Positions 44,882-64,000 are shown, counted from the first letter of the stretch. The stretch: 64,000 nt of DNA from Candidatus Pacearchaeota archaeon (GCA_041660485.1 JBAZWF010000001.1:179812-243811); one strand, 5' to 3'. Numbers and translations are program-made. Notes: generated by a model from the letters alone, not told the origin.

Positions 44882-44900
44882 ATTAGGGAGAGTTTAATAG

Positions 44901-46168: not shown

Positions 46169-46182
46169 CTTTCCTAATCACA
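46169..46182. repeat. 14-nt exact direct repeat CTTTCCTAATCACA (left copy) inside a C-rich tract
   Basis: Identical 14-mer at 47214-47227. The two copies bracket the HEPN/NTase gene pair. Confidence 0.8.
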
Positions 46183-46187
46183 ACCCC

Positions 46188-47282: not shown

Positions 47283-48413
47283 TCAAGCAGAACACACTAA
47301 AGCAGCACATCGAGGTTCTAATTTTCCTTCATTTTCTACAATAATTGTAATGCAATCTTGATGAGTCAATGCCTTAGGATAAATATCCTCTTTCCAATGT
47401 GCATTATCACAACCCGAACCGCAAATTGGTTGTCTTGCACAAAATTGAATTTGAGAACATCCATCTTTATCAATTTCTACTCCTTTTTTAGTATTAAGAC
47501 ATAAATCTTCATTATCACAAACCTCATCATTGTCAGCATCTGTGCAATTCTTACAACTAAATGGACAAGTTGGACCTAAGGCGCCATTATAATATCTATT
47601 ACCTATGCAATTAACACAATAAGTATTTTGAAGATAATTAAAATCATATATCCCTAAGAAATAAATATCATTGTCCCAGATTTGGTTATTTATGCTAAGA
47701 ACTAACATAGATAGACTGATATTATTTGAAATCATAGTATTTTTTGTAATAGTATTATTTTCTGTATCCATATTTAGTTCAATTTCGCCTTGAGTATTAT
47801 TTTTAATATAGTTTCCAATTAAAATATTATTTCTAGCAATATTTTTTTCAGATGAAGATAGCTCAAAGCCCATATAATTATTTGAAGCAGTATTATTTTC
47901 AAGATAATTATATTGTGATAATATGTAGAAACCATAAAAACCATTATTTGAACCAGTATTTCCTATAAGGTTGCTTCTATTATCTTCTAATCTAAAACCA
48001 AACCAGGTATTATTTGTTGCAGTGTTATTGAAAAAGTTAATAACTCCTAATTTATTCTTTTGAACAAAAAATCCGTTTGTATAATTTACCACATTGCAAT
48101 TTTTTATAGTTATATTGCCTGCATTAGAAGAATTTACTAGAACTCCGGTTTTATAATGAAGAACATAACTATCTCCAATTAAACGAGAATTATTGCAATC
48201 TAAAATAGTTATATTGCTTGAAACAGAATTTATTTTAATTCCGTTTGTCAGGAAATAGTTTCCCTGGCAAAATACTGTACTTTTGTTTATAACCATTCCA
48301 TTATACGGCACAATACACGAAGCATAAACCCCTGCTATAGAAATAGATAATATAAAGATAATACTAATTAATAATAAAATTGTGGTTGTTATCTTGCTCT
48401 TTCTCTTTTTCAT
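47283..48413 (-). CDS. Secreted parallel beta-helix (PbH1/NosD-like) repeat protein with a Cys-rich, TSP3-like acidic C-terminal module
   Basis: Signal peptide; repeated N-x-(I/A)-x-x-N-x-x-(Y/F)G(F/I) units; CTDADNDEVCDNEDLC. Confidence 0.75.
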   Translation of the reverse strand: MKKRKSKITTTILLLISIIFILSISIAGVYASCIVPYNGMVINKSTVFCQGNYFLTNGIKINSVSSNITILDCNNSRLIGDSYVLHYKTGVLVNSSNAGNITIKNCNVVNYTNGFFVQKNKLGVINFFNNTATNNTWFGFRLEDNRSNLIGNTGSNNGFYGFYILSQYNYLENNTASNNYMGFELSSSEKNIARNNILIGNYIKNNTQGEIELNMDTENNTITKNTMISNNISLSMLVLSINNQIWDNDIYFLGIYDFNYLQNTYCVNCIGNRYYNGALGPTCPFSCKNCTDADNDEVCDNEDLCLNTKKGVEIDKDGCSQIQFCARQPICGSGCDNAHWKEDIYPKALTHQDCITIIVENEGKLEPRCAALVCSA

Positions 48414-48578
48414 TTTTCTATTATCCTCCTTTCCTATTTAAGCAATATTGTAATGTTCTAGGGTATTTTCTTTTATTACTAAGAGTTAGAGAATTAGGGG
48501 GAGTAGTGAAAAGTTCACTTAAGAAAAAAACTAACTCTTCATTTCAATTTTTATATTAACACTTCAGAGAATTAAAAG

Positions 48579-48938
48579 CTATCTTTTCCTGCCCTTTCTT
48601 GAAAACAAAGTTATAAACATGTCATCTAGCTTTTCTTCTTGATTCTTTATTTTTTTAGAATTAACACAGCTTCGCCTTAAAATATCTTCAATTTGTTCAG
48701 AGATGCTGAACATATTTTTATTAGCGCGCTTTTGAATTAGCTTTATAACTTCAGGATTAAGATATAATTCAATTTTATTTTTAGCAATTTGATTAGAAGA
48801 ACTGCTTAAAGAAGCAAATGCAGAATCAACTTCACTGACTGGCCAGTTATTTTTGATTAATGGCTCGCGAATTTGATAATCATCGAAACCACGTCTTCTA
48901 GCTTCTTTAATAAATTTAATTAAATCTTGGTTTACCAT
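48579..48938 (-). CDS. Hypothetical protein (119 aa from MVNQ)
   Basis: Start is 1 nt after the upstream stop. ARRRGFDDYQIREPLIKNNWPVSEVDSA motif. Confidence 0.5.
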   Translation of the reverse strand: MVNQDLIKFIKEARRRGFDDYQIREPLIKNNWPVSEVDSAFASLSSSSNQIAKNKIELYLNPEVIKLIQKRANKNMFSISEQIEDILRRSCVNSKKIKNQEEKLDDMFITLFSRKGRKR

Positions 48939-48939
48939 T

Positions 48940-49224
48940 TTATTTTTTTCCTTTAGGATTAACATAAACTTTCTGAACTGCAAAGCTTTTGTAAATTCCT
49001 TCTAAAATATCTGTTCCTGCATAACCTGCTAAGAGAGATAATCTAGGATCAAAATCAAATATTATTCCAACAAAAACCCCAATAATTATTGCAATTACAA
49101 CAGTAATTGCATAGTAACTCCAGATTATTCTTCTTTTAAGCGAAAGAGCTTTTAAAAGCCCAACAACTCCACGAGTTAATCCTCCAACACCTCCAAGAAT
49201 TGCAGCTAGAAGTAATCCATCCAT
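48940..49224 (-). CDS. Small membrane protein (94 aa)
   Basis: Gly-rich N-terminal helix plus TM. Confidence 0.5.
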   Translation of the reverse strand: MDGLLLAAILGGVGGLTRGVVGLLKALSLKRRIIWSYYAITVVIAIIIGVFVGIIFDFDPRLSLLAGYAGTDILEGIYKSFAVQKVYVNPKGKK

Positions 49225-49293
49225 AAATTATGTTTTTTCATCCCCTTTCTATAATTAACCTTCAAAGACTTTTAAATGTTTTGCTATAACTTC

Positions 49294-49860
49294 TCACTCC
49301 AAATACATCGACGGTTGGGAAGACATCTTTGAAATAATAAACCTTGCGCCTGTAACATCAGAATCAATTGCAGTTATCAACAAATTATTAACAATTGCTT
49401 TGAAAACTCCTCCAATTCGCGGAATCTTTGCTTTTTCTGAAAATGATGCTAAGATATTTTCTATTTCTTCTTTTGTTAAAGAAATTTTAGTTATAGACTG
49501 TCTGCTAATTGTTCTCACATTAAGAAATCTTCCAGGCCCGGGACATTCAACACTTACAACACTTAAATTTGAAATTATTCTTGCAATTTTACTTAAATAT
49601 AATCCATTATAAAAATCAGCTTCACTTATTCCAACTTCTACAGCAGGTAATGGAACAACTAACTCAGTTTTAACTTCAGGTTTTGGCGAAGCAACAAAAA
49701 CAATTTCTTCTTTTTTAGTTAAATTTAAAATTGAAGGAGCTAATTTTTGCGCAACTTTTCTTGTTATTGCCTGTCTTAATTTTTCCTTAGATTGTTCAGA
49801 CATAGAATTAAGAATTAACTCTTTAGTAAATTCATTAACAAATTCAGTTCTTTGAGACAT
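49294..49860 (-). CDS. Stand-alone FlaI/GspE/VirB11-type N-terminal domain protein (no ATPase domain)
   Basis: VVSVECPGPGRFLNVRTISRQSITKISLTKEEIENILASFSEKAKIPRIGGVFKAIVNNLLITAIDSDVTGARFIISK follows the N-domain pattern of archaeal secretion ATPases and stops where the Walker A domain would begin. Confidence 0.55.
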   Translation of the reverse strand: MSQRTEFVNEFTKELILNSMSEQSKEKLRQAITRKVAQKLAPSILNLTKKEEIVFVASPKPEVKTELVVPLPAVEVGISEADFYNGLYLSKIARIISNLSVVSVECPGPGRFLNVRTISRQSITKISLTKEEIENILASFSEKAKIPRIGGVFKAIVNNLLITAIDSDVTGARFIISKMSSQPSMYLE

Positions 49861-49861
49861 T

Positions 49862-50392
49862 TTAGAATCTTGGAAGCTGTTTTGGTTTAGCAGATTCAGC
49901 ATTAGGTTGTTCTGGCGCAGGTTTTATTGAAGGTTGCATTTGTTGCTGAATAACAACCGCAGGTGCAGGAGTAGAAGCTGGCATTTTTTCTCTTACTCTT
50001 TCTTCCATCATTGTTAATCCTTTTGCAATTAACTTATTCTGTTCTAATAATTTATCAAGTTTTTCTAAAAATTCTTTATCTTCAGTTGTTATTCCTACAC
50101 TTTGTTTTTCAGCAAATGATTTAGCTGAAATTTCAAATAAAGTTAATAATTTAGAAATATTATCAGAAAGTCCATTAAATTTAACAGCCATATCTGCCAT
50201 TGTTCTCTGCAAACCAACAAAATTCTCAACAAGTAGTTTTTGCATCTCTACATCAGACATTTTCTTAGAACTTTTATGTGGAGAAGATATTTTAATATTA
50301 ATTGATTTTGGAGTTCCTGTTTTTTTAACAGTTTTTGTTGTAACTGTTTCTATCACTTCACTCTTTTTTTTAGCCATATTATATTTAGTCAT
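49862..50392 (-). CDS. Hypothetical coiled-coil protein with a Pro/Gln-rich tail (176 aa)
   Basis: ORF only. Confidence 0.5.
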   Translation of the reverse strand: MTKYNMAKKKSEVIETVTTKTVKKTGTPKSINIKISSPHKSSKKMSDVEMQKLLVENFVGLQRTMADMAVKFNGLSDNISKLLTLFEISAKSFAEKQSVGITTEDKEFLEKLDKLLEQNKLIAKGLTMMEERVREKMPASTPAPAVVIQQQMQPSIKPAPEQPNAESAKPKQLPRF

Positions 50393-50412
50393 AAGTAATT
50401 TATAAATGTTAT

Positions 50413-52437
50413 CTAAATAGTGCTTTCATTTCTTAATATCTTTAAAACAAGGTTATAAACTTCTGGAGTTTCATCAACACTAATAAGTTTTGAATGCAAC
50501 TTTCCTACAAGTGCACAAGTTCCATTTATCTGATAATTATTAGCTCCCTCAAGCTTTGCACTATTAGCAGTTACAATTCCATCTCCATCTTCACCATTCA
50601 TATCACAACCCGAACCATAAATAACTGAAATTGGAACATCTGGCAAATCTCCATTATTTAGCTTATTCATAAACAAACTATCTTCTTTCATATCCTTGCA
50701 TTCAAGAGTTTCTCCGAAATAATCACAATATGTAGCAACATCTCCAACAATTCCTTTATTAGGAGTTCCAATCAAAATAACCTGCTCAATATCATTAGTT
50801 CCAAATATCTGCATATATCTCCGGGTAACAAGCCCGCCCATTGAATGAGCAATAATAACAACCTTAGGCCTATTAGTTTCATATTTAACTGTTTTAATTA
50901 AATCATTTAATCTAACTGCATAAGTATCAATATTCTCATTTTTAGTCTGAACAGAAATTACAGTTCCAGTTTGTTTAAATACATCAAAATAATAACTTAA
51001 TTTTAAGGTAATAGGAACATCAGCCCAGACAATCTCGCCCCTTGAAACATTATCTTTTGAATAAAGAGAAATTATTCCTGCATCAAGATAGCCCTCTTTT
51101 TCAAATTTAGCCTGAATTTCATTAAATGCATCTAAACTATATTCAGCAGAAACTTCTTTGCTAAAATCATGTCCATGCAATAATAATATTGGATATTTAT
51201 CAGCTTTACTTCTGCATAAATTATCAGTGCAACATTCTTCACAAACCCCAAATACACAACATTGCAAAGGCTGATTTCCTAATGAAATATTAACTAAATT
51301 ATCTCGAGTTCTAACAAAATTTATTTTTCCATATAAAACTGGATTAGATTTAATAATAACCAAACTACCATCACCAACAGAGGTTATTTTCATTTTTTCA
51401 ACTAAACTTTCCTTCCCATTAACAAATTCTAATTCAAATGCATTTAATTGAATCATTTTACTATTCAACTCACTTTTTAAACCAAAATCATCATTTAATT
51501 TATTAAAATCAATAATTAAACTATTTAACTCACTATTCAGACTATCATTTTTTAATAAAGAAACATTTGAACTTAAATTTCCAATATCAGAACTTAAATT
51601 ATTCAGTCGATCAATTGCATTATTATAAATAACAGACTTATTAATTACCTCACCTTTCAAACTTTCAAACTGATTCGAATGAGGAACATATAAACTTCCA
51701 ACTATGCCTAAATTATATTCAAATTCATCAAAGTTATAGCTATCCCAATAAGTTTTTAATCCAGTTAAATCACTTTTAATTAAATCATTTTCAGATTTAG
51801 ACTTATTTAATCTAACATAATAATTATCAACTAGCATTGTCTTGCTTATTTCACCAAGCATTTGTTGTAGAGAATTAATATCATTTTCAATTTGATTTAT
51901 TTTGCCTACAGCAACATCAAAATTATTTTTAGACTGCTCTTTTGCTAATTGTTGTTCATTATTTAACCTATAATCTAAAGTAATCAAAACCTCTCTCCTT
52001 TTCAAATCTTGAGAAGTATCGCATAAAAATGTAGGAATACTTAAACATTCAACCTCAAAACGATATAATTCCTGTCCTTCTCCAGTTTTATCTGGTTTAA
52101 GAACATAATCTTTGCTTAAAGGAACAGCCAATGTTAAAATAGAACTATCTTTATCAATTCCCCTATTCGTACTTATATCTAAAAATTGAGAAGTGCATTG
52201 AACTTTGCAAAAGGGATTTGCAGTTACTTTAGTAGTAAAACTAACTTTTGCTTCTTCTCCATTTAAAACAATAAAATTTTCTTTATTTGCATTTAAGTTT
52301 ATTAAAACATCATGCCCAAGAATAAATTTAAAATAAAGAAATATCCTTGCCCCAAATAAAAATATAAATACAATAAATAAAAATAATATTAAACACAAAA
52401 TAATCTTCTTAGTTCTTGTTAATTTTTTCCTAGCCAT
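50413..52437 (-). CDS. N-terminally membrane-anchored protein with a C-terminal alpha/beta-hydrolase (lipase class 2 / PGAP1-like) domain
   Basis: TM at the N-terminus; ILLLHGH, VVIIAHSMGGLVTRRY (GxSxG nucleophile elbow), GDGIVT. Confidence 0.75.
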   Translation of the reverse strand: MARKKLTRTKKIILCLILFLFIVFIFLFGARIFLYFKFILGHDVLINLNANKENFIVLNGEEAKVSFTTKVTANPFCKVQCTSQFLDISTNRGIDKDSSILTLAVPLSKDYVLKPDKTGEGQELYRFEVECLSIPTFLCDTSQDLKRREVLITLDYRLNNEQQLAKEQSKNNFDVAVGKINQIENDINSLQQMLGEISKTMLVDNYYVRLNKSKSENDLIKSDLTGLKTYWDSYNFDEFEYNLGIVGSLYVPHSNQFESLKGEVINKSVIYNNAIDRLNNLSSDIGNLSSNVSLLKNDSLNSELNSLIIDFNKLNDDFGLKSELNSKMIQLNAFELEFVNGKESLVEKMKITSVGDGSLVIIKSNPVLYGKINFVRTRDNLVNISLGNQPLQCCVFGVCEECCTDNLCRSKADKYPILLLHGHDFSKEVSAEYSLDAFNEIQAKFEKEGYLDAGIISLYSKDNVSRGEIVWADVPITLKLSYYFDVFKQTGTVISVQTKNENIDTYAVRLNDLIKTVKYETNRPKVVIIAHSMGGLVTRRYMQIFGTNDIEQVILIGTPNKGIVGDVATYCDYFGETLECKDMKEDSLFMNKLNNGDLPDVPISVIYGSGCDMNGEDGDGIVTANSAKLEGANNYQINGTCALVGKLHSKLISVDETPEVYNLVLKILRNESTI

Positions 52438-52468
52438 TAATATAATACAAATTATCGATATAAAAAAC

Positions 52469-54547
52469 TTATCTTAGGATAGATCTTGCCCTTTTTTGAA
52501 GCTCTTCAGCAAGTTCTGCTTTTTTCTTTGAAAGCTGTTCTTCCTGCATTCTTGCATTCTGCCTCATTCTATCTTCAAATTGACGATTATATTTTGACTT
52601 AAGCATATCTTCTCTTCTCTTTAATTCCTGAAGCATTTCTAGATGAGCTTTTTCAGCAAACTCCTTCTGCAGTTTTATTCTTTCCTGTTTTACTTTATCT
52701 TCCTCTTCTTTTTTAAACAAATTAATTTTATCCATAATAACTCTTTTTTCACTTGCAATTTCAATATTTTTCTCTTTTTCAAGTTCAAGCAATTTCTTTT
52801 CTTTTAATCTTAGAGCAGCTTCCTGAGCTTCATGTTTTGCATTCATTTCCTTAAGCTTATTTTCAAGTTTTTTCTTTTCTAATAAAATTTCTTCATTTGC
52901 CTGATGTCCAAACTCTTTTCTTAATTGCTCTTGCAGTTTCTTCTTTTTAAGTTGAATACTTTTATTTAATTGATTGCTGTAATCGAGTTTCATTTTTCTT
53001 TTTAATTCCATTCTTTCCATAATTCCAATTTCAGATATTTTTTGAGCCATTTCTTTTTTCTTCGATTCATATTCTTGCTGAAGTCTTTGTTTTTCTTCAC
53101 TAATATGTTTATTTAATTCAGAATCGAATCTATTATTGTAGCTTTGTTTAAGCTTTTCAGTTAAATTATGAATTTCTTTTTTATGTTCTTCAATAACTTT
53201 CTTATGTTCTTCTTCTTTTATTTTATGCTGATTATGTTTCAATTTAGACTGTTGTAAAATTAAATGCCTATTTTTCTGTTTTTGCTTTTCAAGAGCATAA
53301 GTTGTTTCAGAAAGATTTTGATTAAGCAATTGATTCATTTTTTGCTCATGAGTTAAAGAATCTCTTAACTGTTTTGTCTGCTCTTCAACAAGCTCAGCTT
53401 GTTTTTGTCTCTGCATATTAACAAAATTATTCATCTTAATAACAAACTGCCTTTTCAAATCATCACTTAATTTTTTTCTTTTCAAAATCAATTCCTGATT
53501 AATTCTATCATTTGCCTGCTGAGTAAGCTCGCTTCTAATTTTATTCTGGAAATTCAAAACATCATGTCTGTCTTTAATCTTCTGTTTTTCAAGTTCCTGA
53601 ACTTTCTTCTTTAAAAGAACATCATTAATTATCTTCTGTCTATCAATTTCTCTTAATTTCTTGCCCAATGATTCCCGATTAATTTTATCATTACTAATTA
53701 ATTTTCTTTCAATTTCATTTTTCTCTTTCTGAAGTCTCAGTAATTTTTCTTTAATATCTTTCTGTTCATTTTCCATCTGTCTTTGCTGTGCAACTTTATC
53801 TTTTCTTACTTCATTTGCTAATTGTGATCTAAATTGTATTTCAAGATTTCTTTTTTCCTTTTCAAATTCTTCTTTATATTTTTGCTTCATTCGCGAAACA
53901 TAAAATAAATCTAATTTTGTCCTCTCTGCTTCAAATCTTTTTCTTAATTCATCAGAAAACTTTTGAGCAACTTCTTTTTGAAGCTCAATTTTAACTTTAT
54001 CTTTATAATCTTCCTTAAGTTTACCCTGCATATCATTATACTTTTCTTCAAGTTCTTTTTTCCTTAATATCAAGTCCTGCCTTAAATCCTGATTAAGCTG
54101 TCTTTCTTTATTTTTAACTCTATTAGAAAGCTCAAGTTTCAAATGATTAACAAAATCCTGAAATCCTTCATCAACAACTAAACTTACATCAGAATCTTCT
54201 TTTATTTTTTTAGTTAATTGATCATTAATAGAACTTTTTAAATTTTTAATTTCTTTCCTTATCTCTAAATTTGTATCAGAAATTTCTTCAAATCCTTTTT
54301 CAATATTTTTAAGAGGAGATTTTCTCACTCCTTTATTTAATACTTTATGTCTTAAATCTCTCATTAATTTTTCAACTTCAGGAATAGCAGTTGTATCTTT
54401 TAAACGAGATCGAATAACACTAACTTCTTTTTCAAAACCTTTAGTATCTAATGTCTTCAACTCGTTCTTTATCTCTTCAAGTTTATTTACTTTGCTCTGA
54501 AAAGAATAAAAATCTTTTCTAAGCTTTTCATCACTCTTTTTCACCAT
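52469..54547 (-). CDS. K/E/Q-rich coiled-coil protein (692 aa), no TM
   Basis: Composition and heptad-like periodicity by eye. Confidence 0.65.
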   Translation of the reverse strand: MVKKSDEKLRKDFYSFQSKVNKLEEIKNELKTLDTKGFEKEVSVIRSRLKDTTAIPEVEKLMRDLRHKVLNKGVRKSPLKNIEKGFEEISDTNLEIRKEIKNLKSSINDQLTKKIKEDSDVSLVVDEGFQDFVNHLKLELSNRVKNKERQLNQDLRQDLILRKKELEEKYNDMQGKLKEDYKDKVKIELQKEVAQKFSDELRKRFEAERTKLDLFYVSRMKQKYKEEFEKEKRNLEIQFRSQLANEVRKDKVAQQRQMENEQKDIKEKLLRLQKEKNEIERKLISNDKINRESLGKKLREIDRQKIINDVLLKKKVQELEKQKIKDRHDVLNFQNKIRSELTQQANDRINQELILKRKKLSDDLKRQFVIKMNNFVNMQRQKQAELVEEQTKQLRDSLTHEQKMNQLLNQNLSETTYALEKQKQKNRHLILQQSKLKHNQHKIKEEEHKKVIEEHKKEIHNLTEKLKQSYNNRFDSELNKHISEEKQRLQQEYESKKKEMAQKISEIGIMERMELKRKMKLDYSNQLNKSIQLKKKKLQEQLRKEFGHQANEEILLEKKKLENKLKEMNAKHEAQEAALRLKEKKLLELEKEKNIEIASEKRVIMDKINLFKKEEEDKVKQERIKLQKEFAEKAHLEMLQELKRREDMLKSKYNRQFEDRMRQNARMQEEQLSKKKAELAEELQKRARSILR

Positions 54548-54587
54548 ATTTTTATCAATATATAGTAGTTATTTTTCTTTTTAAAAC

Positions 54588-57500
54588 TTACCCTTTTAAG
54601 GGATTTCTTCCTTTAAATTCATCAAGTTTCTTTTGAAGTCTTGTTGTATCATAATATCCTTTTTCCTTCCATTCTCTTAATTGTTTCTCAAGATCACCTA
54701 GTTCTTCTTTCTTAACTTCTTTTCTTCTTATCTTTCTTTTTATCTCTCTAGCTTTTCTTCTTGCAGCTTTTCTTTCAACTCTTACAAACTTCTTTCTTGC
54801 TTTTACTTTTGCTCTTATCGCTTTTCTTTCAGCTCTTGCTTTTTCTCTTATTAATTTCTTTTGAGCTTTTTCTCTTGCTCTTATTATCTTTTTCTCAGCT
54901 TTCGCAACCGCTCTTTTAATTCTATATTCTTTTATTTTTCTTGGGATTTTTTTAACTTTCTTTGCCATTGAAGCAATCATTCCCTCTTCTAACTTAGATA
55001 CTCCATAGTATTTCTTCTGTTTCCATTCTTTCAACTTATCTGACATTGAAGCAAACATCTTTCTTCTAGGTTTAACTGCAGGCATTTCAATTGGCTTTAT
55101 CACAGTTGGCTTCTCAATTCTCACAGCTCTTTCTCTTCTTACTTTTCTAAATCTAATCTTAACTTCAATTCCTGAGAAGAACTTCTTAATCTTTCCAACT
55201 GCGCTTCCAGCTACTCTTCCAATTCTTTCTTCTATTCCAATTCCAGGTCTTGCCGGTTTCACAGCTCTTTCAATTTCTCTTCTTGCTTTGAATTGAGGTA
55301 ATTTAATCTTCTTCAATTTCATTCCCTTAATACCTGAAATTTTTTCAATAATTTCTTTTCTATGCTTAATTATTGCATAAACAACTAATATCAATAAAGA
55401 TATCCATAAGATTAATTTCAAATAATACAACCAATCAAAGTATGCTTTCTTAATAATACAAGGCGCACATGAACCTCCACAATCAACATCAGTTTCATCA
55501 AAGTCTTTAATTCCATCAAAACAGAAATTACAATAACCTGCAAATGAAGAAGTAATAAGTCCAATATCTAATTTTTTTAATCCAGAAACCTGGCTTGATT
55601 TAAGTCTGCTTACTAATTTATTAGAAGCAATATCATAAACTTCAACATAATCTTCATAACATATTTTTGAGTTTACAATTCTTACTGGAGTTCCAACATC
55701 ACAAGAACTATAATTTACAGTATTATTCTCACATTTTTTAGCATCAGAACAAAGACTAAATTGCTGTCCAGATAAAACAGGTTTTCCTTGAAGAACATCA
55801 GTTACGCTATAATTAAATTCACAAAGAGAATTTTCTCCACATTTAAAATCAGGAATACAAGAACACTCTTGCTGATAGGGTTTATTTAAATTTGTTCCGC
55901 ATTCATTTAAATCAACACAGTCTTCAGCATATTTAAATCCAGGCTCTTTACAAACACTCCATGTACAATACCAATTTTCTTCACAAAGAGTAAGATTAGA
56001 AGATACTTTAACATCCCATAAAACTTCCTGAATATTAAGCCCATTGCTAATTTCAGCTTTTATCTTTGAATCTTTCAAAAATCTTTCAGTACTAAAACTT
56101 TGCAAACTATCAGTTCCTGAATCTTGTTTTCTTAAAGTAGAATCTAAATACCATTTAATTGTTAAAGGTTCACTAACACTATCTACCATAGTAACTGAAA
56201 ACTCAATTGAAGAACCATTTGCAATTATTAAAAATAATTCTTGAGGAGTATAAGTAATAATTAAATTTTTTATACAAGATTGAGTTTCTGTATAAGTAAG
56301 ATTAGTTTCATCACATCTATTTCTATCTGTCCAGATTCTACTATGAACTCCCCCTTCACATATATTCCATACACCATATTCCCATAAAGGAGTACATCCG
56401 CACGCTCTAAACTCAGTTTCAGTACTTCCACATCCATCACTTCTTGTTCTTGTTTGTTGATTATTTACACAATCACTCCAAGCACTCCAAGCACTCCAAG
56501 AAGAAGTACATCCCCCTTCTCCTTTATTATGAACTAAAACATTATTTGCATAGAAATTATGATATTTATCAATTGATTTTAAGTTATAAGTTTGAATTAC
56601 TTCATTCCAACAATTAATTGATTTTATTTCTTTATATTTCAAATCGTCAAACATAACATAATCTCCAACAATTAAATCACTTACAAAGCCCATTGCACTA
56701 TTTTCTTTTAAAGTTTCTTTTGAAGAAATTGCCTTCCATCCCTCATTTGTATAAACTGGATGTTCTTTTGTTAATTCAAGTTTAGAATTATCAGAAAATA
56801 CCAAAGAACACATATGATTTCTAACAGGTGTTTCAATTTCTTCAACTCTGCCAATATCATTTATTTTATTTTTCTCATTATAACTAAGAATATCTTCTCC
56901 AACTTTAACATCTTCAATATTTTTTTCATTTCCATCACTCATTAATATTTTTGTTCCAGCAGGGAAACAAGATGTAGGAACATCAGTACAACTTTGTGTT
57001 TCTACTTCTGTTCCTCCACAACCATCTGTTCTTGAACGTGTTTGAACACTTCCAGAACAAGCACTCCAAGCACTCCAAGCACTATAACTCGGAGTACATA
57101 CTTCTTTATCAGCGTGAATTGCACTTCCAATATATGTTCCATAATTATCATTACTTAAAGTTACCTCCCATCGTATAAATCCTCCAAAACTTTTATTAAC
57201 AGTTACATTTGCCCTATAGGAACCATTAACAAGTTTAATTATTCCTTTTTCGGGATAATAAGTTGGCCCATAAGGCTGTTGAGCAGAATTTGTTGAATTA
57301 GCACTAATATTCTGTGGATCGTAAACAAATGTTCCAGTTTCATTTATTTTAGTTATATTAATTAATAATGTAGCGTTATCTCCATCATAATAACCTCCAA
57401 ACGCTCTTAGATTTACCATTGTCAAACTAGTAATATATCTAACAATTGAAAAGTTAGTATATGATTCATTAATTGCCTTAGAATAATATTGTGAAGGAAG

Positions 57501-60500
57501 TGTATAATTAACTAATAAAGAATTAGTTCCTGCACTTAAAGAGGATTTACTATAAGAATAAGAACAATGTCCAGAATCATTTGTATAAGCAGTTGTAATA
57601 AAACTATTATTATTATAAAAATAACATGTTGCTCCTGCAACTCCTTGATTTGTTTCATTATAAACTCTTGCAGTTAAATTAACAGATTTCGCAACAATCC
57701 CCATATCATCTTCTCCGGTAACTAAGCTATTTCCTCTAACTAATTCAATCCCATTTTCAGGATATGTAAAATTAATTGATACAGAAGGATATTTAGTTGA
57801 AAAAAACACAGAAGTAAAATTAATATTATTTGCACTATCATTACAAGTAAATACAACATTATTTGAACCAGAAGCTAAAATAGGATAAGTAGAATAAAAA
57901 TAAGTCTCATTAAATCTATTCATAGTAATATTTGTCATCAAATTCAAACTAAATTTGCAAGAATCAAGGTTTTCTGAACCACTTACATTAAATTCAATTA
58001 ATGATGGCCCATAACTATCATTTAATGGAGAAATAATATTAAGCAATGGGAAAGTAGTATCTATTATCAAAAAATTAGGATCACTAAAGTATTCGGTGGT
58101 TATACTCTCATCACCTAAATTCAAAGTATAAATACATGAAACAAACCAATCATAATTATTATCTGATAAAGTTTTTGAAACTGTTTGATAAGTCCCATTA
58201 GCCGGAGAAATAACAGTATCTTCAGAAATTCCATTAATAATTAAAGAACAACTATCCACCTGAGGACCGGTATAATAATAAACAAAATTCTGTGAAGGGT
58301 TATTTGAAATTAAATTATTCTCAGGAGAAACTAAATAAATTGTAGGTTCAGGAGGATTTCCTAAAACTTCAATGCTTCCAGTTGATGTCTCAGCAATATT
58401 TCCTGCATCATCATAAAGATAAAATTTATATGAATAAGTTCCGGTATAAACTCTTTTACTATAATCCACTAAATAAGATGTCCCGCCAATTGCAACAGGT
58501 GAATCATTTTGCCAAACACCATTTGGATTGCTTGAAAAAATAAATCTGCTTAAATTAAAATTATCATTTGCTAAAACTCCAAAGTGAGCAAAAGTATTGT
58601 TATAAACTCCTCCAGTGGAATAAAGTCCACTATAAGTTGGAGCAATATTATCAATTTGAACAGCCCATAAATCTCCTTTTCTATTATTATTTGTAGGAGT
58701 AGCTGCATCATTAACACTTATATTTGCATATTTTATTCCTGAACTTGCAGTGCTTATATTTGCAAGTATATTCCATGAACTATTAAATAAAGGAGCCATA
58801 CTTCCAGAAGAGAATGTCATATTTGTCCATAAACTTCCATTTAAATTAATTAAATATGCCTGAACATAATTTATTCCAGCAGCAACAAAAGGAGAATCAG
58901 TTACAGTTGCAGTTAAATTAACTCCCTGATTATTTTTAACACTTGATTGTCCTATTGGATATACTACTTGCATATCAATAACAATTGGTTTTGTTCTATC
59001 AATTATATAATGAATAGTATCAAAATTAGAATTCCCAGAATTATCATATGCCATAATACGAATATCATAACCCTCACTTAAATTTGAAAAAGAAGCAGTA
59101 TTCCAAGTGCAACTATAAATATTGGCAGAAGAAATACGGTTTATGCAAGTACTTATATTTGTCCAGCTTGTAACAGTAGAATTTTTATATTGGAAATGAG
59201 CTACTCCCAACCCATGATTATCAGAACCATTTGCCCTTATTATTACAGGCCCATTAACAAAAGAATTATTTGAAGGGGAATAAATATAAATATCTGGAGG
59301 AGTTGAATCCTGAGTAGTCAAAGGCAGATAATCAATATTATAGTTATTAATTACATAAGTTTGATTACAAATAGAATCTCCGTCAGGATCTCCGCATGTT
59401 TGAGAACGTCCAGTTCCAAGAGAATTAACCCAATAATTTCCACCAATATAATTTCTACCAATTATATTTGTTGTAAGTGTTTTTGTTTTATTCAAATAAT
59501 TAAGATAGCTAGCACTATTTGAAAAAGAAGCAATTGACCCAGTTGAATTAAAGATATTATTAGAAATAAAATTAGAACCTGAACTACTCATTTGTATTGC
59601 AAGAGAAAATGAAGCAACAGTATTGTTAACAATAAAACTATTCCCACTTAATGAATATGATATTCCTATACCTCCTGCAGTTAAAGCAGTTAGATTACTA
59701 TTAGTAATATTATTATAATAATTATAATTGTTAAATCTTATTGCATAATTTGTTCCTATTCCATTAATTAAAATATTATTTGAATCAATAATTGTTGAGT
59801 TTATCCCTCCAGTTAAATATACTCCATAAGCAGAAGTTCCAGAAGTTACAATAGAATTATTTAAAATACTATTTCCAATTCCATATAAAGACAAAGCAAT
59901 TCCATAAGCACTTGTATTAGTAGTATTAATTATATTAGTAGAAAATATATTTGAATAAGATTTCATATAAGAATATATTCCATAACCTGAAGTTCCTAAA
60001 GATAATATTTTATTTGAAGTAAAATTATTATTGCTTGAATTAAATAAATAAACTGGATAAGCACTTGAACCAGCAGTAGTAATATTATTTCCTGAAATAA
60101 CTCCAATAGATGAACCTAATAGATATATGCCATAAGCAGAAGTTGCACTTGTTTTAATAGAATTATTTAATATTAAACTTGAATTTGATTGCTGTAATAA
60201 ATAAATAGAATAAGAACCATACCCGCTTGTATTAATAATATTATTATTTATTGAACCAGACTTATATTTATTAAAATAAATTCCATGATTTACAGAATTA
60301 GAAGTTATTGAGCCATAAGTTGTAATGCTATTATTTTCAATTGTTGCATTTGTCCCATTCTGAAAATAAATTGCATAACTATTTGTCCTTGTTGCACTTG
60401 CCTGAGACATTTTACAATCTCTAACAATACTATCATTATAATTAACAGAAGCAATACCATAACCATTTGTTGTTTTAGAATAATTAATTAAATGCCCGCT

Positions 60501-60893
60501 ACAATTCAAAGTAACTTTATTTGCTTTTATATTAAAACAAGTTCCTGTAGATAAAACATCTAAAGTAAGAATATAAACTGAATTTGAAACAGTTAGGTTA
60601 GTGCAATTAGAAATATAAAAAACATTTACTTCCTCATCTTCTAATATTCCAAATCTTCCTGTAAAAAGTCCAAAAATATACTGCCCAACAGCTTCTATAC
60701 TTGCAATAACTCTTTGTGCAAATGTTGTAGATGTAGATTCTGTTTGTGCAAAATATCCTTGCTTATTATCAGAAGTATAGCTTGCAGAATCTCCTTGAAA
60801 AGCATAAACAATTGAAAAAATACCGGTTAAAAAACCAGTAAATAACATAAACATTACAATAGCTAAAGTATATTTTAAATTAAGTGCTTTCAT
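54588..60893 (-). CDS. Giant (2101 aa) surface protein: signal peptide, parallel beta-helix repeats, Ig-like region, TSP1-like repeats flanking a Hint domain, Cys-rich modules, one TM and a ~270-aa polybasic cytoplasmic tail
   Basis: Uninterrupted 6.3-kb ORF. PbH1-like NNSI..TS..SAYGIYL repeats. WSAWSAWS-C motifs. TM LILWISLLILVVYAII. Confidence 0.9.
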   Translation of the reverse strand: MKALNLKYTLAIVMFMLFTGFLTGIFSIVYAFQGDSASYTSDNKQGYFAQTESTSTTFAQRVIASIEAVGQYIFGLFTGRFGILEDEEVNVFYISNCTNLTVSNSVYILTLDVLSTGTCFNIKANKVTLNCSGHLINYSKTTNGYGIASVNYNDSIVRDCKMSQASATRTNSYAIYFQNGTNATIENNSITTYGSITSNSVNHGIYFNKYKSGSINNNIINTSGYGSYSIYLLQQSNSSLILNNSIKTSATSAYGIYLLGSSIGVISGNNITTAGSSAYPVYLFNSSNNNFTSNKILSLGTSGYGIYSYMKSYSNIFSTNIINTTNTSAYGIALSLYGIGNSILNNSIVTSGTSAYGVYLTGGINSTIIDSNNILINGIGTNYAIRFNNYNYYNNITNSNLTALTAGGIGISYSLSGNSFIVNNTVASFSLAIQMSSSGSNFISNNIFNSTGSIASFSNSASYLNYLNKTKTLTTNIIGRNYIGGNYWVNSLGTGRSQTCGDPDGDSICNQTYVINNYNIDYLPLTTQDSTPPDIYIYSPSNNSFVNGPVIIRANGSDNHGLGVAHFQYKNSTVTSWTNISTCINRISSANIYSCTWNTASFSNLSEGYDIRIMAYDNSGNSNFDTIHYIIDRTKPIVIDMQVVYPIGQSSVKNNQGVNLTATVTDSPFVAAGINYVQAYLINLNGSLWTNMTFSSGSMAPLFNSSWNILANISTASSGIKYANISVNDAATPTNNNRKGDLWAVQIDNIAPTYSGLYSTGGVYNNTFAHFGVLANDNFNLSRFIFSSNPNGVWQNDSPVAIGGTSYLVDYSKRVYTGTYSYKFYLYDDAGNIAETSTGSIEVLGNPPEPTIYLVSPENNLISNNPSQNFVYYYTGPQVDSCSLIINGISEDTVISPANGTYQTVSKTLSDNNYDWFVSCIYTLNLGDESITTEYFSDPNFLIIDTTFPLLNIISPLNDSYGPSLIEFNVSGSENLDSCKFSLNLMTNITMNRFNETYFYSTYPILASGSNNVVFTCNDSANNINFTSVFFSTKYPSVSINFTYPENGIELVRGNSLVTGEDDMGIVAKSVNLTARVYNETNQGVAGATCYFYNNNSFITTAYTNDSGHCSYSYSKSSLSAGTNSLLVNYTLPSQYYSKAINESYTNFSIVRYITSLTMVNLRAFGGYYDGDNATLLINITKINETGTFVYDPQNISANSTNSAQQPYGPTYYPEKGIIKLVNGSYRANVTVNKSFGGFIRWEVTLSNDNYGTYIGSAIHADKEVCTPSYSAWSAWSACSGSVQTRSRTDGCGGTEVETQSCTDVPTSCFPAGTKILMSDGNEKNIEDVKVGEDILSYNEKNKINDIGRVEEIETPVRNHMCSLVFSDNSKLELTKEHPVYTNEGWKAISSKETLKENSAMGFVSDLIVGDYVMFDDLKYKEIKSINCWNEVIQTYNLKSIDKYHNFYANNVLVHNKGEGGCTSSWSAWSAWSDCVNNQQTRTRSDGCGSTETEFRACGCTPLWEYGVWNICEGGVHSRIWTDRNRCDETNLTYTETQSCIKNLIITYTPQELFLIIANGSSIEFSVTMVDSVSEPLTIKWYLDSTLRKQDSGTDSLQSFSTERFLKDSKIKAEISNGLNIQEVLWDVKVSSNLTLCEENWYCTWSVCKEPGFKYAEDCVDLNECGTNLNKPYQQECSCIPDFKCGENSLCEFNYSVTDVLQGKPVLSGQQFSLCSDAKKCENNTVNYSSCDVGTPVRIVNSKICYEDYVEVYDIASNKLVSRLKSSQVSGLKKLDIGLITSSFAGYCNFCFDGIKDFDETDVDCGGSCAPCIIKKAYFDWLYYLKLILWISLLILVVYAIIKHRKEIIEKISGIKGMKLKKIKLPQFKARREIERAVKPARPGIGIEERIGRVAGSAVGKIKKFFSGIEVKIRFRKVRRERAVRIEKPTVIKPIEMPAVKPRRKMFASMSDKLKEWKQKKYYGVSKLEEGMIASMAKKVKKIPRKIKEYRIKRAVAKAEKKIIRAREKAQKKLIREKARAERKAIRAKVKARKKFVRVERKAARRKAREIKRKIRRKEVKKEELGDLEKQLREWKEKGYYDTTRLQKKLDEFKGRNPLKG
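56526..56969 (-). other. Hint (intein-like / BIL-type) domain, 148 aa, inside the giant surface protein
   Basis: CFPAGTKILMSDG...TKEHPVY...NFYANNVLVHN followed by Lys, not Cys/Ser/Thr. Confidence 0.8.
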
Positions 60894-61060
60894 TCTCTTT
60901 TTTATATACTAAATAGACGAAAAATACTATATAAATATTATCAAAATGGGAAAGATTGTAAGTTTTCAAAGAAAACTTAAAACTATAAGTAAGAAATATA
61001 ATATGCAAAGTTAATAGAATGTTATAGTTCATGTAAACTAATTAATCATTATTTAATAAT

Positions 61061-61112
61061 ATTAAAATAAGTTAGGTTTTGCGCCAGCATAAACCAATAT
61101 GATACATTTATT
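61061..61112. repeat. Copy D of the ~50-nt hairpin element
   Basis: TTAAAATAAGTTAGGTTTTGCGCCAGCATAAACCAATATGATACATTTA. Confidence 0.8.
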
Positions 61113-61151
61113 TAAGAACAATTTTTGTATAGATAATAATATTTCCCAAAT

Positions 61152-62648
61152 TTACCCACTTAAATTTTCAACATATTCTGGCGCATCAACTGGAGAAGGA
61201 GCAACTTCCATTAATTTTTGAGCAAGATACATAAGCCATTTAGCTTTATCTAAAGAAATCTGGGATTTCAAAATATCCCTAGACAAACCAGCATCATAAG
61301 TTTTTTCAATCCAATACTCTCCAATTTCAAATCTAATAATCAATCTATCATTTAAAATTTCAGACTTAACAATTTCTGCATCTTCTTCTCCAGTAATCAT
61401 TTTAAGCTTGAACTTCTGTTCATCACTTAATACAAAACTACTTACATTTTCATCTTCAAAGGTAACATTTGCAGTTAAATTAGAAGTTAAATTAGCAAGT
61501 AAAGTCTCATTGCTAGCAGTTGAAGTTTCTAAAAGAACTAAATTCTTGCTTACAGATAATATTTCTTTATTTTGCGAAATAACTGAAACAATCATTTCTC
61601 CTTCTTCAGGATTTAAATTAAGTGAAGATAAATTAATATTAATTTCATAAGTTATATCTCCTAAATAATCTTCTCCAAAACCTTCTTCTGTTTCAGAATA
61701 ATCAGTTGTAACAGTTACAACTCCATTTTCAATAGATAATGAAACTGGTTGTGAAGAAGATACAATTTCTGCAGTCTGTCCTGATTCAAGAGTATAAGTA
61801 TAAGGATTTTCAAAAGAAGTTACTCCACTAACTTCTCCAACTTCATTTATTGTTTCTCCAGTAATTGGAGATGTTTCACCTACTTCAGAGGTAGATTCAG
61901 TTGTTGATTCTGTTGAAGATGTTTCAGAGGTAGATTCAGTTGTTGTTTCTGGAGTTTCACTTGAAGTTGATTCTGGTGTAGATTCAGTTGTTGTTTCTGG
62001 AGTTTCACTTGAAGTTGATTCTGGTATAGATTCAGTTGTTGTTTCTGGAGTTTCACTTGAAGTTGATTCTGGTGTAGATTCAGTTGTTGTTTGTGTTTCT
62101 TCAGTAGAAGTTTCGCTTGTTTCTGTTGAAGTATTTGTTTCTTCACTAGTTTCACCACTAATTCCTTCTGTTCCAGTTCCTTCACTTGTTCCAGAAGAAA
62201 TTACATTCATAGTAAATGAAACTTCTGGATAACTTATTTTCTCGCCCAAAATTCCATATCCTTCTCCACTTCCAGATAAATCTTGTCCAATAGCATAATA
62301 ATCTCCATTAAGAGCTGCTTCAGAAGTTAAACCAGACAAAGTATAATTTGAATAATTAGAACCAATTTTAATTGAAATAATTGAATCAGAAGGAATAAGC
62401 TCTCCTGATTTAAGGCTTAATGCAAGACTCCCTTTCAAAGTTTCATTAGGAAGATAAGTTGTAGTAACTGTTAATGAAACACGCCCAGTTGTTCCAAAAT
62501 TTCCAATATTAATAAAAAAAACAAATAAAACTCCAACTAATACAACTATAAATGCACCTATCCAAAATTTATTATTAAACTCAAATTTTTTACGTTTAAC
62601 TAAATTCTGTTCATTTAATTCTTTATTATTTTTCAAAATTCTTTTCAT
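61152..62648 (-). CDS. Membrane-anchored mucin-like protein with a Thr/Ser/Glu/Pro-rich tandem-repeat stalk
   Basis: N-terminal TM; TTTESTPESTSSETPE repeated. Confidence 0.75.
   Translation of the reverse strand: MKRILKNNKELNEQNLVKRKKFEFNNKFWIGAFIVVLVGVLFVFFINIGNFGTTGRVSLTVTTTYLPNETLKGSLALSLKSGELIPSDSIISIKIGSNYSNYTLSGLTSEAALNGDYYAIGQDLSGSGEGYGILGEKISYPEVSFTMNVISSGTSEGTGTEGISGETSEETNTSTETSETSTEETQTTTESTPESTSSETPETTTESIPESTSSETPETTTESTPESTSSETPETTTESTSETSSTESTTESTSEVGETSPITGETINEVGEVSGVTSFENPYTYTLESGQTAEIVSSSQPVSLSIENGVVTVTTDYSETEEGFGEDYLGDITYEININLSSLNLNPEEGEMIVSVISQNKEILSVSKNLVLLETSTASNETLLANLTSNLTANVTFEDENVSSFVLSDEQKFKLKMITGEEDAEIVKSEILNDRLIIRFEIGEYWIEKTYDAGLSRDILKSQISLDKAKWLMYLAQKLMEVAPSPVDAPEYVENLSG
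61931..62098. repeat. About 3.5 copies of a 48-nt coding tandem repeat (16-aa unit TTTESTPESTSSETPE)
   Basis: Units start at 61931, 61979 and 62027, with a partial unit at 62075. Confidence 0.85.
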
Positions 62649-62649
62649 A

Positions 62650-63354
62650 TTAACTTGTCGTTTCCACTGTTGTTATAACATTATTCCAATCAACATTTCC
62701 TACATTTTCAACATAAACTGCAATTACATCTCCAGGAACATAAGTTAAAACATTTTCTGACTGAGTATCAAAGTCAATTTTCTTTTGGTCAGATGAAGTT
62801 ATCATATTGCTAAATCCTGTGTCAACTCCATTTTTATAAACTTTAATATATAATTTTCCAGTTCCATCTTTTATACCTAAGCTTGTTGATATTCCTGTAA
62901 TGCTTCCAGGTCTCATCATAACATAACCTCTTTCTGCACTTGATTGAACTCCAGTTGCACTATCAAGATATCTTGATTTAACAGATTCACCAGAAAATCC
63001 AAATGTCAAATATTGAATATTCTTAGTTATAGCAGTTTCAAGTTTTGGTAATTCATTTGCAGAATATGTTACAATAAAAAGATTTTCAGATTTATTTCCT
63101 TCAGTATAATTTACTTCATAGATTCCAACATTATTTTCATCAATTGTTTTAATCTGAACATCATCAGGTAAAGATGACTGATCAACTTGTTGTATGTCGG
63201 TAATTTTATCTGAATCAATTCCCCCTTTTTCAACAAAAGAAGAAACATAGTCAGAAACCTCTTTAGAAACCGCTCCATCAGAAATAGTTTGGGCAAAAGC
63301 TCCAGCTGATATTAAAAATATAAATCCTAAAACAACTATCACCTCTTTTTTCAT
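62650..63354 (-). CDS. Secreted hypothetical protein (234 aa, signal peptide)
   Basis: N-terminal VIVVLGFIFLISAGAFA; stop-start spacing of 1 nt to the next gene. Confidence 0.6.
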   Translation of the reverse strand: MKKEVIVVLGFIFLISAGAFAQTISDGAVSKEVSDYVSSFVEKGGIDSDKITDIQQVDQSSLPDDVQIKTIDENNVGIYEVNYTEGNKSENLFIVTYSANELPKLETAITKNIQYLTFGFSGESVKSRYLDSATGVQSSAERGYVMMRPGSITGISTSLGIKDGTGKLYIKVYKNGVDTGFSNMITSSDQKKIDFDTQSENVLTYVPGDVIAVYVENVGNVDWNNVITTVETTS

Positions 63355-63361
63355 GTTAAAA

Positions 63362-63619
63362 TTAACTTCCTAATGAACTATTTGTTGTTGATTGTGGTTG
63401 TTGATATCTAACAAGTATCATTGTGTCATTTCCTTCACCAAGAACAACATAACCTTGTTGATTAACCACCTGCATTATTGTTTGAACAGCTATTTTTTGA
63501 GCTGCAACTTGTTTTTGAACAACAAATCCTTGAATTGTAGGCCCAATAAAAAGTACATATACTAATACAAGAGCTAATACAACAATAATTCCAATGGCCA
63601 CTGCAAATTTCTTATCCAT
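63362..63619 (-). CDS. Small N-terminally anchored protein (85 aa)
   Basis: AAAGGAGG upstream; TM AVAIGIIVVLALVLVYVLFIG. Confidence 0.55.
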   Translation of the reverse strand: MDKKFAVAIGIIVVLALVLVYVLFIGPTIQGFVVQKQVAAQKIAVQTIMQVVNQQGYVVLGEGNDTMILVRYQQPQSTTNSSLGS

Positions 63620-63677: not shown

Positions 63678-63812
63678 TTATTTTCAAATTGGGTTTAATA
63701 CTTCGTGCCAATTTGAAGATTAGAAATTGTCAGTCACGAAGTGATAAATTTTAGGCGATTTCTTTATTTTCAAATTGGGTTTAATACTTCGTGCCAATTT
63801 GAAGATTAGAAA
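63678..63812. repeat. Two perfect 49-bp direct repeats (63678-63726 and 63764-63812, 86-bp period). Each forms a hairpin TTCAAATTGG-N15-CCAATTTGAA. The spacer carries CACGAAGT, complementary to the loop ACTTCGTG.
   Basis: Direct reading. Confidence 0.85.
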
Positions 63813-63903: not shown

Positions 63904-64000
63904 ATATAACCTCTCCAAAACCTATTAATCTCCAATGTCCTCCAAAATTTCTAGCAAGTCCAATATTATCTCCTGGGAAAATTACAACCGGAATATTCAA
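63904..64000 (-). CDS. 3' end of a gene running off the window (…LNIPVVIFPGDNIGLARNFGGHWRLIGFGEVI*)
   Basis: Own translation of the minus strand; partial, function unknown. Confidence 0.35.

Follow-up and report, generated by a model that had tools for sequence, protein, structure and literature searches.

A block of surface-protein genes in a Pacearchaeota archaeon: probable mosaic around a cassette pairing a giant membrane protein with a helical cytoplasmic partner

We have analysed a block of eleven minus-strand genes (g85, g234, g498, g2101, g692, g674, g176, g202, g94, g134 and g376, positions 63619 down to 47283) in a 64 000-nucleotide (nt) stretch of DNA from Candidatus Pacearchaeota archaeon (GCA_041660485.1, JBAZWF010000001.1:179812-243811), hereafter the window. 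An initial annotation, made from the sequence of the window, had taken the block for a single host-attachment and lipid-scavenging module. With a probability of roughly 0.55, the block is instead a mosaic of at least four units, with a surface cassette as its core in which a giant protein is tied to a helical cytoplasmic partner. The first unit (63619-52469) would consist of the anchored protein g85, the secreted trimer-type knob g234 and the mucin-like stalk g498, followed by g2101, with a probable promoter of its own, and g692. The lipase gene g674 would be the second unit, the pair g176-g202 the third, and g94, g134 and g376 the fourth. On our best reading of the sequences, the core encodes a variable surface adhesin or envelope fibre that would be coupled to the cytoplasmic helical partner. 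Gene content, folds, synteny, co-occurrence and catalytic residues are observations; binding of g692 by the tail, the adhesin role and Hint cleavage are proposals built on them.

The window is part of the chromosome of a small-genome DPANN archaeon, in agreement with the reduced archaeal genome proposed initially. It belongs to a contig of 856 kb, its G+C content is 29%, its housekeeping genes are of archaeal type (a tRNA with an intron, Kae1, GyrA and GyrB with an intein, and a thermosome subunit), and homologs of the block proteins come nearly all from metagenome-assembled genomes (MAGs) labelled Pacearchaeota, Nanoarchaeota or Woesearchaeota. For comparison we gathered about 100 related DPANN loci (labelled L001 and so on) by exact-protein look-ups, a genome scan and a metagenome scan, and compared them by tblastn and hidden Markov models (HMMs). 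All eleven minus-strand open reading frames (ORFs) were recovered at the positions first reported for them, and the order g2101-g692-g674-g176-g202-g94 is repeated in an independent assembly (Logan SRR18595301, L016). Eight of the eleven genes have homologs in other DPANN genomes, which, with the L037 homologs of g94 and g134 and the Pfam matches of g376 described below, speaks for genuine genes. Still, the eleven do not co-occur as a set in related loci, which is the observation by which the initial annotation itself proposed to judge its single module, and as one module the block does not stand. What does co-occur is g85, g234, g498 and g2101, with or without g692, and separately g176 with g202; g674, g94, g134 and g376 do not take part. 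The idea of a module spanning both sides of the membrane survives in reduced form, with extracellular, anchored and cytoplasmic proteins and the tail of g2101 co-occurring with g692, but with the lipase, g94, g134 and g376 outside it.

A surface cassette downstream of eIF2-gamma

The gene order eIF2g-g85-g234-g498-(54-residue AbrB/MazE-like gene)-g2101-(g692), downstream of eIF2-gamma, recurs in more than 10 divergent genomes. It was seen in L001, L005, L011, L015, L018, L029, L034 and L106, and in part in L007, L008, L014, L017, L022, L024 and L025, while the trio g85-g234-g498 is kept without the giant protein in the distant genomes L104, L105 and L092. Searches of Pfam, NCBIfam, PHROGs and PADLOC returned nothing for g85, g234, g692, g176 or g202.

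The first gene of the trio, g85 (63362-63619), encodes an N-terminal transmembrane (TM) anchor (hydrophobic segment, residues 1-35) and an ectodomain with about 50 conserved residues (QGYVVQKQ...NQQGYVVL); orthologs 44-64% identical adjoin g234 in L001, L005, L011, L015, L018, L029, L106 and L092. The product of g234 (62650-63354) is secreted and belongs to a family of 54 clusters found exclusively in Pace- and Nanoarchaeota. Its C-terminal half (residues ~116-234, nt 62653-63009) has the C1q/TNF-like jelly-roll fold of a 'fibre knob': the AlphaFold2 model (pLDDT 79) matched many C1q domains, ExsFA and viral fibre heads with a Foldseek probability of 1.0, the PDB matches including ExsFA/BxpB, C1QL and PRD1 P5. 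A BFVD search gave 84 matches (E<=1e-3) with knobs from collagen-like and tail-fibre proteins of viruses, the best with a root-mean-square deviation (rmsd) of 2.5-3 A over 122-133 columns. At the sequence level, hhalign paired the C-terminal half with the C-terminal end of a protein encoded by a phage-like contig (97.7% probability, E 1.9e-12); that protein has a weak tail-fibre PHROG match (E 5e-5) and is encoded two genes from an endolysin. The modelled fold suggests that g234 is probably a ligand-binding surface protein of the knob type. The phage-like contig (L103, IMG/VR contig IMGVR_UViG_3300025103_000450) carries both the knob gene and a Hint gene (4713-5390 and 6309-7289), and its Hint protein resembles that of g2101 (tblastn 4.5e-9); both surface modules are thus common to DPANN chromosomes and viruses.

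The third gene, g498 (61152-62648), specifies an N-terminal anchor (TM residues 25-54), a Ser/Thr/Glu-rich linker of 16-residue repeats (nt 61930-62092) and a conserved C-terminal domain, and a single-sequence PDB search found nothing for it. The repeat, a 48-nt unit in 3.4 copies that are 98% identical according to Tandem Repeats Finder, bears out its first description as a mucin-like repeat protein. Wherever the cassette occurs, even in the distant L104 and L105, a g498 ortholog comes after g234.

Between g498 and g2101 lies an AT-rich gap of 258 nt (60894-61151), which probably houses a separate promoter. It takes the place of the relatives' AbrB/MazE-like gene of 54 codons, which stands directly upstream of the giant adhesin gene in L005 (17084-17248), L007, L014, L015, L018 and L106, is conserved at 62-76% identity and is a candidate for a dedicated regulator of the adhesin/g692 unit. 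A search of the window for this gene did not find it, nor is the GTPase gene that relatives have upstream present in the window.

The tail of the giant protein and its companion g692

The giant protein g2101 (54588-60893) is a type I membrane protein that begins with a signal peptide and ends, after a TM segment (residues 1819-1845, nt 55359-55439), in a cytoplasmic tail of 256 residues (nt 54591-55358). The tail is polybasic, as first noted, with 92 Lys and Arg among its 256 residues. Alignment of tails resolves it into a polybasic spacer of variable length and two copies of a motif of about 25 residues, [FY]xDLxxKLxEW+x+xYYxTxxL, with EW..YY at residues 1957 and 2075; the second copy sits in the near-invariant C-terminus, ...EWKxKGYYDT..LQKKLDEFKGRNPLK. 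The motif was found nowhere else in the window or in the ~100 loci.

Downstream of g2101 lies g692 (52469-54547), encoding a cytoplasmic, highly charged helical protein that is almost free of Pro and Gly (44% charged residues, no TM segment, 2 Pro in 692 residues). The two genes follow a simple rule. Wherever the adhesin has a tail (141-445 residues, with EW..YY), a g692 homolog is adjacent (15 of 15 loci); wherever it stops within 71 residues of the TM segment and so is tail-less, neither the motif nor g692 is present (12 of 12), and there are no discordant loci. Given this perfect co-occurrence, a physical link is the most economical inference: the tail motifs of g2101 would dock g692 and so connect a scaffold inside the cell with a variable fibre or adhesin on its surface. 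In a neighbour-joining tree of g176 plus g202, the tailed loci form a single clade, within which one tail-less pair falls, plus one outlier.

A modular ectodomain with a Hint insert

Three regions are common to g2101 orthologs: the signal peptide, a core at residues 1038-1304 and the juxtamembrane/TM region (residues 1637-1846), of which the part before the membrane is rich in Cys. The remainder of the ectodomain is modular. A beta-helix (residues 204-490) is followed by an immunoglobulin-like (Ig-like) region, and this beta-helix/Ig block is absent from the orthologs in L005, L014, L015, L018 and L106; the Hint insert, which also comes and goes, is replaced by a Gly-rich linker in L005, L008 and L011. 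The beta-helix assignments made initially for g2101 and g376 are confirmed by NosD/beta-helix regions above the Pfam threshold.

The Hint domain (residues 1308-1455, nt 56529-56972), which lies between two Cys-rich WSxWS repeats, likewise holds. Residues 1308-1456 matched four Hint-clan Pfam families (E 6e-6 to 1e-4, all under the gathering scores), and phmmer against the PDB gave 8w20 at 1e-5 and 6y75 and 6tmm at 5e-5, aligned end to end from block A to the terminal 'VLxH'; a single-sequence PDB search with g2101 gave nothing other than this domain. All six orthologs with a Hint domain keep the catalytic residues (C1308, LTKEHP and VLVHN). Position +1 is occupied by Lys (HN-K-G) in the window and in all orthologs, and since Lys is no nucleophile, the domain is of the bacterial intein-like (BIL) type and not a splicing intein. 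From its sequence the domain would be expected to cleave, either cutting the distal ectodomain off its membrane stub or activating it for attachment.

Inteins proper occur nearby and in relatives: GyrB in the window (36409-38727, plus strand) carries a mini-intein (Intein_splicing, residues 436-572), and relatives (L001) have an intein in eRF1. Inteins are thus common in the lineage, which fits the variable Hint insert of g2101. In the L007 MAG, the ortholog of the giant protein (13187-19296) is present as two ORFs, split exactly at the N-terminus of Hint, and a nearly identical metagenome contig (L022) has a single ORF of 2067 codons (13786-19953). Faulty assembly or a frameshift artefact may have produced the two ORFs, or the gene may really be divided.

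The lipase gene g674

The product of g674 (50413-52437) has an N-terminal anchor, a Cys-rich N-terminal domain and a C-terminal LipA-like alpha/beta hydrolase (residues ~415-660). Its assignment as a membrane-anchored lipase fold was well founded. Four Pfam families scored above their cut-offs (Lipase_2, 30.4 bits against 20.3; PGAP1, 27.0 against 24.3; DUF915, 25.5 against 22; LCAT, 24.1 against 21), and lipases of the Bacillus LipA type were found in the PDB at 2e-6, with AHSMGG aligned to the elbow and the His offset by about 5 residues in the pairwise alignment. The triad Ser532 (in AHSMGG), Asp619 and His648 is intact and, together with ten Cys, invariant in 30 homologs. The triad and the N-terminal anchor indicate an active extracellular enzyme, so that g674 is probably a membrane-anchored extracellular esterase or lipase of a widespread DPANN family. 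Ester lipases do not act on archaeal ether lipids.

The gene is an accidental, lineage-specific neighbour that lies outside the conserved cassette. The family is absent from every related cassette locus, and in the three other genomes examined, g674 orthologs lie in unrelated neighbourhoods.

The g176-g202 pair

The product of g176 (49862-50392) is a small helical protein with a basic N-terminus, a conserved helical core of about 90 residues and a Pro/Gln-rich C-terminal end. Its family is very large in DPANN (988 clusters at 50% identity, E<=1e-3) and gave no Pfam or PDB relative. A weak match to FlaC_arch (E 0.01; four of the 40 members of the family had one, at E>=1e-3) was put down to coiled-coil noise and rejected, and the only PDB match of the family profile, to ribosome recycling factor, was judged spurious.

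The next gene, g202 (49294-49902), probably encodes 188 residues from a start at 49860: an N-terminal helical hairpin, a disordered linker and a C-terminal alpha/beta domain (nt ~49321-49623). It had been described as a stand-alone FlaI/GspE N-domain, and here the fold speaks for the description and direct sequence searches do not. Neither Pfam nor NCBIfam (T2SSE and T2SSE_N included) gave a match, a single-sequence PDB search returned nothing relevant, and a profile of the 27-sequence family was marginal, its best PDB matches being FlaI (4ii7, E 0.035) and afGspE (0.81). The AlphaFold2 model, with pLDDT >90 over the C-terminal domain, had 2oap, 8rkd, 9e24 and 2gza as its top Foldseek matches (N-domains of afGspE, CpaF and VirB11 at E 7e-5 to 1e-3), and it superposes on the N-domains of afGspE, CpaF, VirB11, PilB and PilT with rmsd ~2 A over 96-102 columns. 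A SepF- or Roadblock-like reading, suggested by the helix-linker-core layout and the upstream GTPase, was rejected: Roadblock and longin structures ranked much lower than the ATPase N-domains (rmsd 8-12 A), and SepF did not appear among the entries. Family members are 177-248 residues long and end after the N-domain, with no RecA-like ATPase domain; no ATPase gene follows g202 in ~90 loci. The protein therefore resembles one domain of the secretion ATPases and is not a member of that family.

Of 64 loci whose sequence extends far enough downstream, 62 have a g202 homolog after g176. Most relatives carry the pair following a GTPase gene and convergent to the cassette, and so as a transcription unit of its own; in the window and in L106, pair and cassette run in the same direction. 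In many distant loci the pair occurs with no cassette nearby, among genes for Rpo7, PIN, DUF357, an amino-acid-kinase-family protein and RNase P p30. The pair is very widespread in DPANN and, on the mosaic reading, independent of the cassette that it often adjoins; it may serve as an adaptor or regulator at the membrane. Secreted proteases recur beside it: in L092 (9336-12217, plus strand) it is followed, on its own strand, by an anchored protein of 243 residues and a secreted one of 723 residues with an HEAGH zinc-protease motif, and in L003 it adjoins a Peptidase_M11/fn3 protein.

Strain-specific genes, spacing and neighbours

The last three genes appear from sequence comparison to be strain-specific additions, with no counterparts in the cassette loci. 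The product of g94 (48940-49224) is a small membrane protein (TM residues 32-62) with sub-threshold family matches only, and that of g134 (48579-48983), probably 119 residues from M16 (nt 48938), is small, basic and cytoplasmic. Weak matches of g134 to DUF6364 (5.6e-4) and to an Arc-like PHROG (7e-3) make a ribbon-helix-helix-like C-terminus possible. Homologs of g94 and g134 were seen in L037 only. The gene g376 (47283-48413) encodes a secreted or anchored NosD-type beta-helix protein, above the curated cut-off for NosD/Beta_helix in Pfam, with a Cys/Asp-rich C-terminus; it has its own upstream gap and GGAGG, and no orthologs were found in related loci. It was considered and rejected as a paralog of the g2101 beta-helix, the similarity being at the repeat level only (E 0.017).

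The 'very short or 1-nt spacers' of the initial annotation are real within sub-groups of the block but not throughout it. The genes g85 and g234 are 7 nt apart, g234 and g498 1 nt, g2101 and g692 40 nt, g692 and g674 31 nt, g674 and g176 20-35 nt, g176 and g202 1 nt (taking the M15 start of the called 188-residue product), and g202 and g94 69 nt; g94 and g134 overlap, or are ~1 nt apart with the M16 start. Two larger spacers, of 258 nt (g498-g2101) and 165 nt (g134-g376), interrupt the block and speak against its being one operon, and the block is flanked by others of 285 nt (eIF2g-g85) and 118 nt (g376-nucleotidyltransferase). Together with the GGAGG sequences that precede g85 and g376, the gap sizes point to at least three or four transcription units. 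The minus-strand run extends beyond the block on both sides, to eIF2-gamma upstream (63905-64000) and to a nucleotidyltransferase/HEPN-like pair downstream (46188-47164).

The spacer between eIF2-gamma and g85 contains a perfect 48-nt direct repeat, in two copies 86 nt apart (63678-63725 and 63764-63811, read on the minus strand). Each copy holds a 10-bp hairpin (TTCAAATTGG...CCAATTTGAA), where none is expected by chance, and folding of the 171-nt region of the repeats beats all 200 shuffles (z -3.2). The repeat pair could be a terminator of eIF2-gamma, a regulatory element of the cassette or a small repeat element.

Directly after the block, at 42349-47164, lies a defence-like islet with a DUF3800 protein and a PLD-family nuclease (DrmC-like in PADLOC, 9e-13); its nucleotidyltransferase and HEPN-like pair are the PADLOC candidates PDC-M05A and PDC-S09. 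Elsewhere in the window, a tRNA gene with a long intron (24053-24206, plus strand), an archaeal hallmark, was missed by ARAGORN and scored 45 bits with the Rfam tRNA model. A gene for a tyrosine-decarboxylase-like pyridoxal-phosphate enzyme adjoins one for an amino-acid permease (12220-15491, minus strand), and the two may form an amino-acid/amine exchange pair; a PGA_cap protein, of the poly-gamma-glutamate capsule synthesis-like kind, is also encoded (25466-26500, plus strand). These genes are unusual for so small a genome.

Alternative readings of the block

Several of our observations weigh against a mosaic with a coupled core. The co-occurrence of tail and g692 amounts to about 2-3 independent evolutionary events, not to 27 observations, so shared ancestry explains much of it, and it is from this co-occurrence that binding of g692 by the tail would be deduced. 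Heptad periodicity in g692 is strong only in the first ~130 residues, which makes 'long helical protein' a safer name than 'coiled coil'; of the cytoplasmic coiled-coil protein first described, the cytoplasmic and helical parts stand. The fold match of g234 to solved structures is moderate (TM score 0.45-0.55, rmsd ~6 A), and operon boundaries are read from gap sizes. The pair g176-g202 stands beside the cassette in three different orientations and so could belong to the system. Finally, g85 and g234 are strongly conserved (50-60% identity), as one would expect of structural envelope proteins more than of host-specific adhesins.

The last point leads to the rival that fares best, which we regard as a serious though minority possibility: the cassette makes a constitutive envelope or S-layer-like coat, with g85, g234 and g498 as its structural proteins and g2101 as a large wall protein tied to the cytoskeleton by g692, and has no specific role in host contact. 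The high conservation of g85 and g234 (22 invariant positions, 46% mean column identity) and the fixed place beside eIF2-gamma in divergent genomes are what such a coat would lead one to expect, and the closest solved folds of the knob include the exosporium basal-layer proteins ExsFA and BxpB, anchors of the hair-like nap. But the ectodomain of g2101 gains and loses whole modules among close relatives, which typifies proteins that engage in interactions and not those that build a lattice; most C1q-type knobs serve to bind ligands, for instance at phage fibre tips; and the Pfam and NCBIfam searches gave no S-layer family match. The variable ectodomain thus favours an interaction role, and the conserved trio a structural one.

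Somewhat less probable is a system made of the cassette and the g176-g202 pair, without the lipase, in which the pair is a cytoplasmic assembly or regulatory module. The N-domain fold of GspE and FlaI mediates contacts of the ATPase with a membrane platform, and g202 has that fold. Adjacency, moreover, is frequent: convergent in L001, L005, L007, L011, L014, L015, L017, L018 and others, co-directional in the window and L106, and in other layouts in L092, L104 and L105. Yet the HMM search found a g234 homolog in only about one-third of the g176 loci with long flanks, and the window encodes no partner ATPase. The regions that hold both pair and cassette also keep PPDK, TGT and eIF2-gamma, together with the GTPase, so that retention of an ancestral gene order accounts for the adjacency about as readily as a functional tie would.

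We consider it improbable that all eleven genes form one host-attachment and lipid-scavenging apparatus with a coiled-coil/FlaI-N scaffold inside. The genes are co-directional with many tight junctions, their products mix extracellular, membrane and cytoplasmic topologies, the triad of g674 is intact, and L106 has a co-directional run from g85 through g692-g176-g202 (lipase not included). A need for such a machine can be argued too, as DPANN archaea depend on host lipids by an unknown mechanism (PMC11035636). What tells against the apparatus is the lipase, missing from the cassette loci of relatives and located elsewhere in the three other genomes examined, the lack of conservation of g94, g134 and g376 with the cassette, the gaps of 258 and 165 nt, and a pair that is mostly convergent and often lives free of the cassette among housekeeping genes.

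A virus or mobile-element remnant is very improbable: the phage homology of the g234 knob, a similar Hint on the same phage-like contig, the tailspike-like beta-helix, the weak holin-family match of the small membrane protein g94 (E 0.026) and the adjoining defence-like islet are outweighed by the absence of any significant PHROG match for a block protein and of integrase, capsid and terminase genes, by a base composition like that of the rest of the window and by the same position beside eIF2-gamma in more than 10 divergent genomes. A provirus or defence-island reading was likewise rejected, with the block proteins lacking PHROG and PADLOC matches and the chromosomal position fixed.

Relation to known systems

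Read as a mosaic with a coupled core, the eleven-gene 'apparatus' breaks up into parts that can each be tested: a conserved surface trio that includes a phage-like knob, a modular giant whose tail motif tracks g692, and a very widespread pair with an ATPase-less N-domain. The rule relating tail and g692 is a concrete hypothesis, and dropping the lipase from the model ends an attractive but unsupported story of a lipid-scavenging machine. The literature that we searched held no description of the cassette, the tail motif or the g176-g202 pair. The single domains are all of known folds (BIL/Hint, C1q-like knob, LipA-like lipase, ATPase N-domain); new, as far as the sequences indicate, would be a surface cassette with a pattern of inside-outside coupling.

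Each component has recognizable relatives. The knob of g234 shares its C-terminal jelly-roll with the C1q/TNF-like heads of phage tail fibres, giant-virus collagen-like proteins and Bacillus ExsFA/BxpB, and is homologous in sequence to the phage protein with the weak tail-fibre match; unlike these, g234 stands alone at 234 residues with no collagen or coiled-coil stalk, is chromosomal and is conserved in Pace- and Nanoarchaeota. The Hint domain of g2101 has the features of BIL and pretoxin-Hint domains, namely Cys1, TxxH, a terminal HN, no +1 nucleophile and a place inside a variable extracellular protein, and its best solved relatives (8w20, 6y75, 6tmm) are non-intein Hint domains of toxin precursors. 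It differs in being archaeal, in lying between Cys-rich WSxWS-type repeats and in its variable presence among orthologs, and its cleavage is predicted.

The g674 hydrolase has the AHSMGG elbow and invariant Ser/Asp/His of the B. subtilis LipA-type minimal lipases (family I.4), its best PDB matches, but sits behind a Cys-rich extracellular domain of ~400 residues and an N-terminal membrane anchor. The C-terminal ~100 residues of g202 superpose at ~2 A on the N-domains of GspE/FlaI (ArlI), CpaF, VirB11 and PilB, and the best PDB matches of its family profile (FlaI and afGspE) fall in the same region. The differences are the missing RecA-like ATPase domain, a sequence similarity below significance and the constant pairing with g176.

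As a whole, the core most resembles the attachment (terminal) organelle of Mycoplasma pneumoniae, with its P1 adhesin complex and its cytoplasmic coiled-coil core proteins (HMW2 and others), an analogy based on established knowledge and on the titles of PMC8191905 and PMC4959525. In both cases a host-dependent cell with a reduced genome has a large, tailed membrane adhesin and long helical cytoplasmic proteins encoded nearby. The two share no homology of sequence or fold, and the archaeal system is known here from genes, with its contact between tail and g692 drawn from co-occurrence. Keyword searches of two papers on DPANN attachment structures seen by cryo-electron tomography turned up no named components of these structures.

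To our knowledge, Pacearchaeota and their relatives are uncultivated and their mode of contact with other cells is unknown. It is tempting, if rather speculative, to extend the analogy and to picture the tailed g2101, g692, the trio and the g176-g202 pair as a trans-envelope attachment structure, an archaeal counterpart of the Mycoplasma terminal organelle in which the duplicated EW..YYDT would be a new docking signal and g202 an adaptor. Were this so, the attachment organelles that cryo-electron tomography has shown in DPANN archaea would have a first list of candidate parts.

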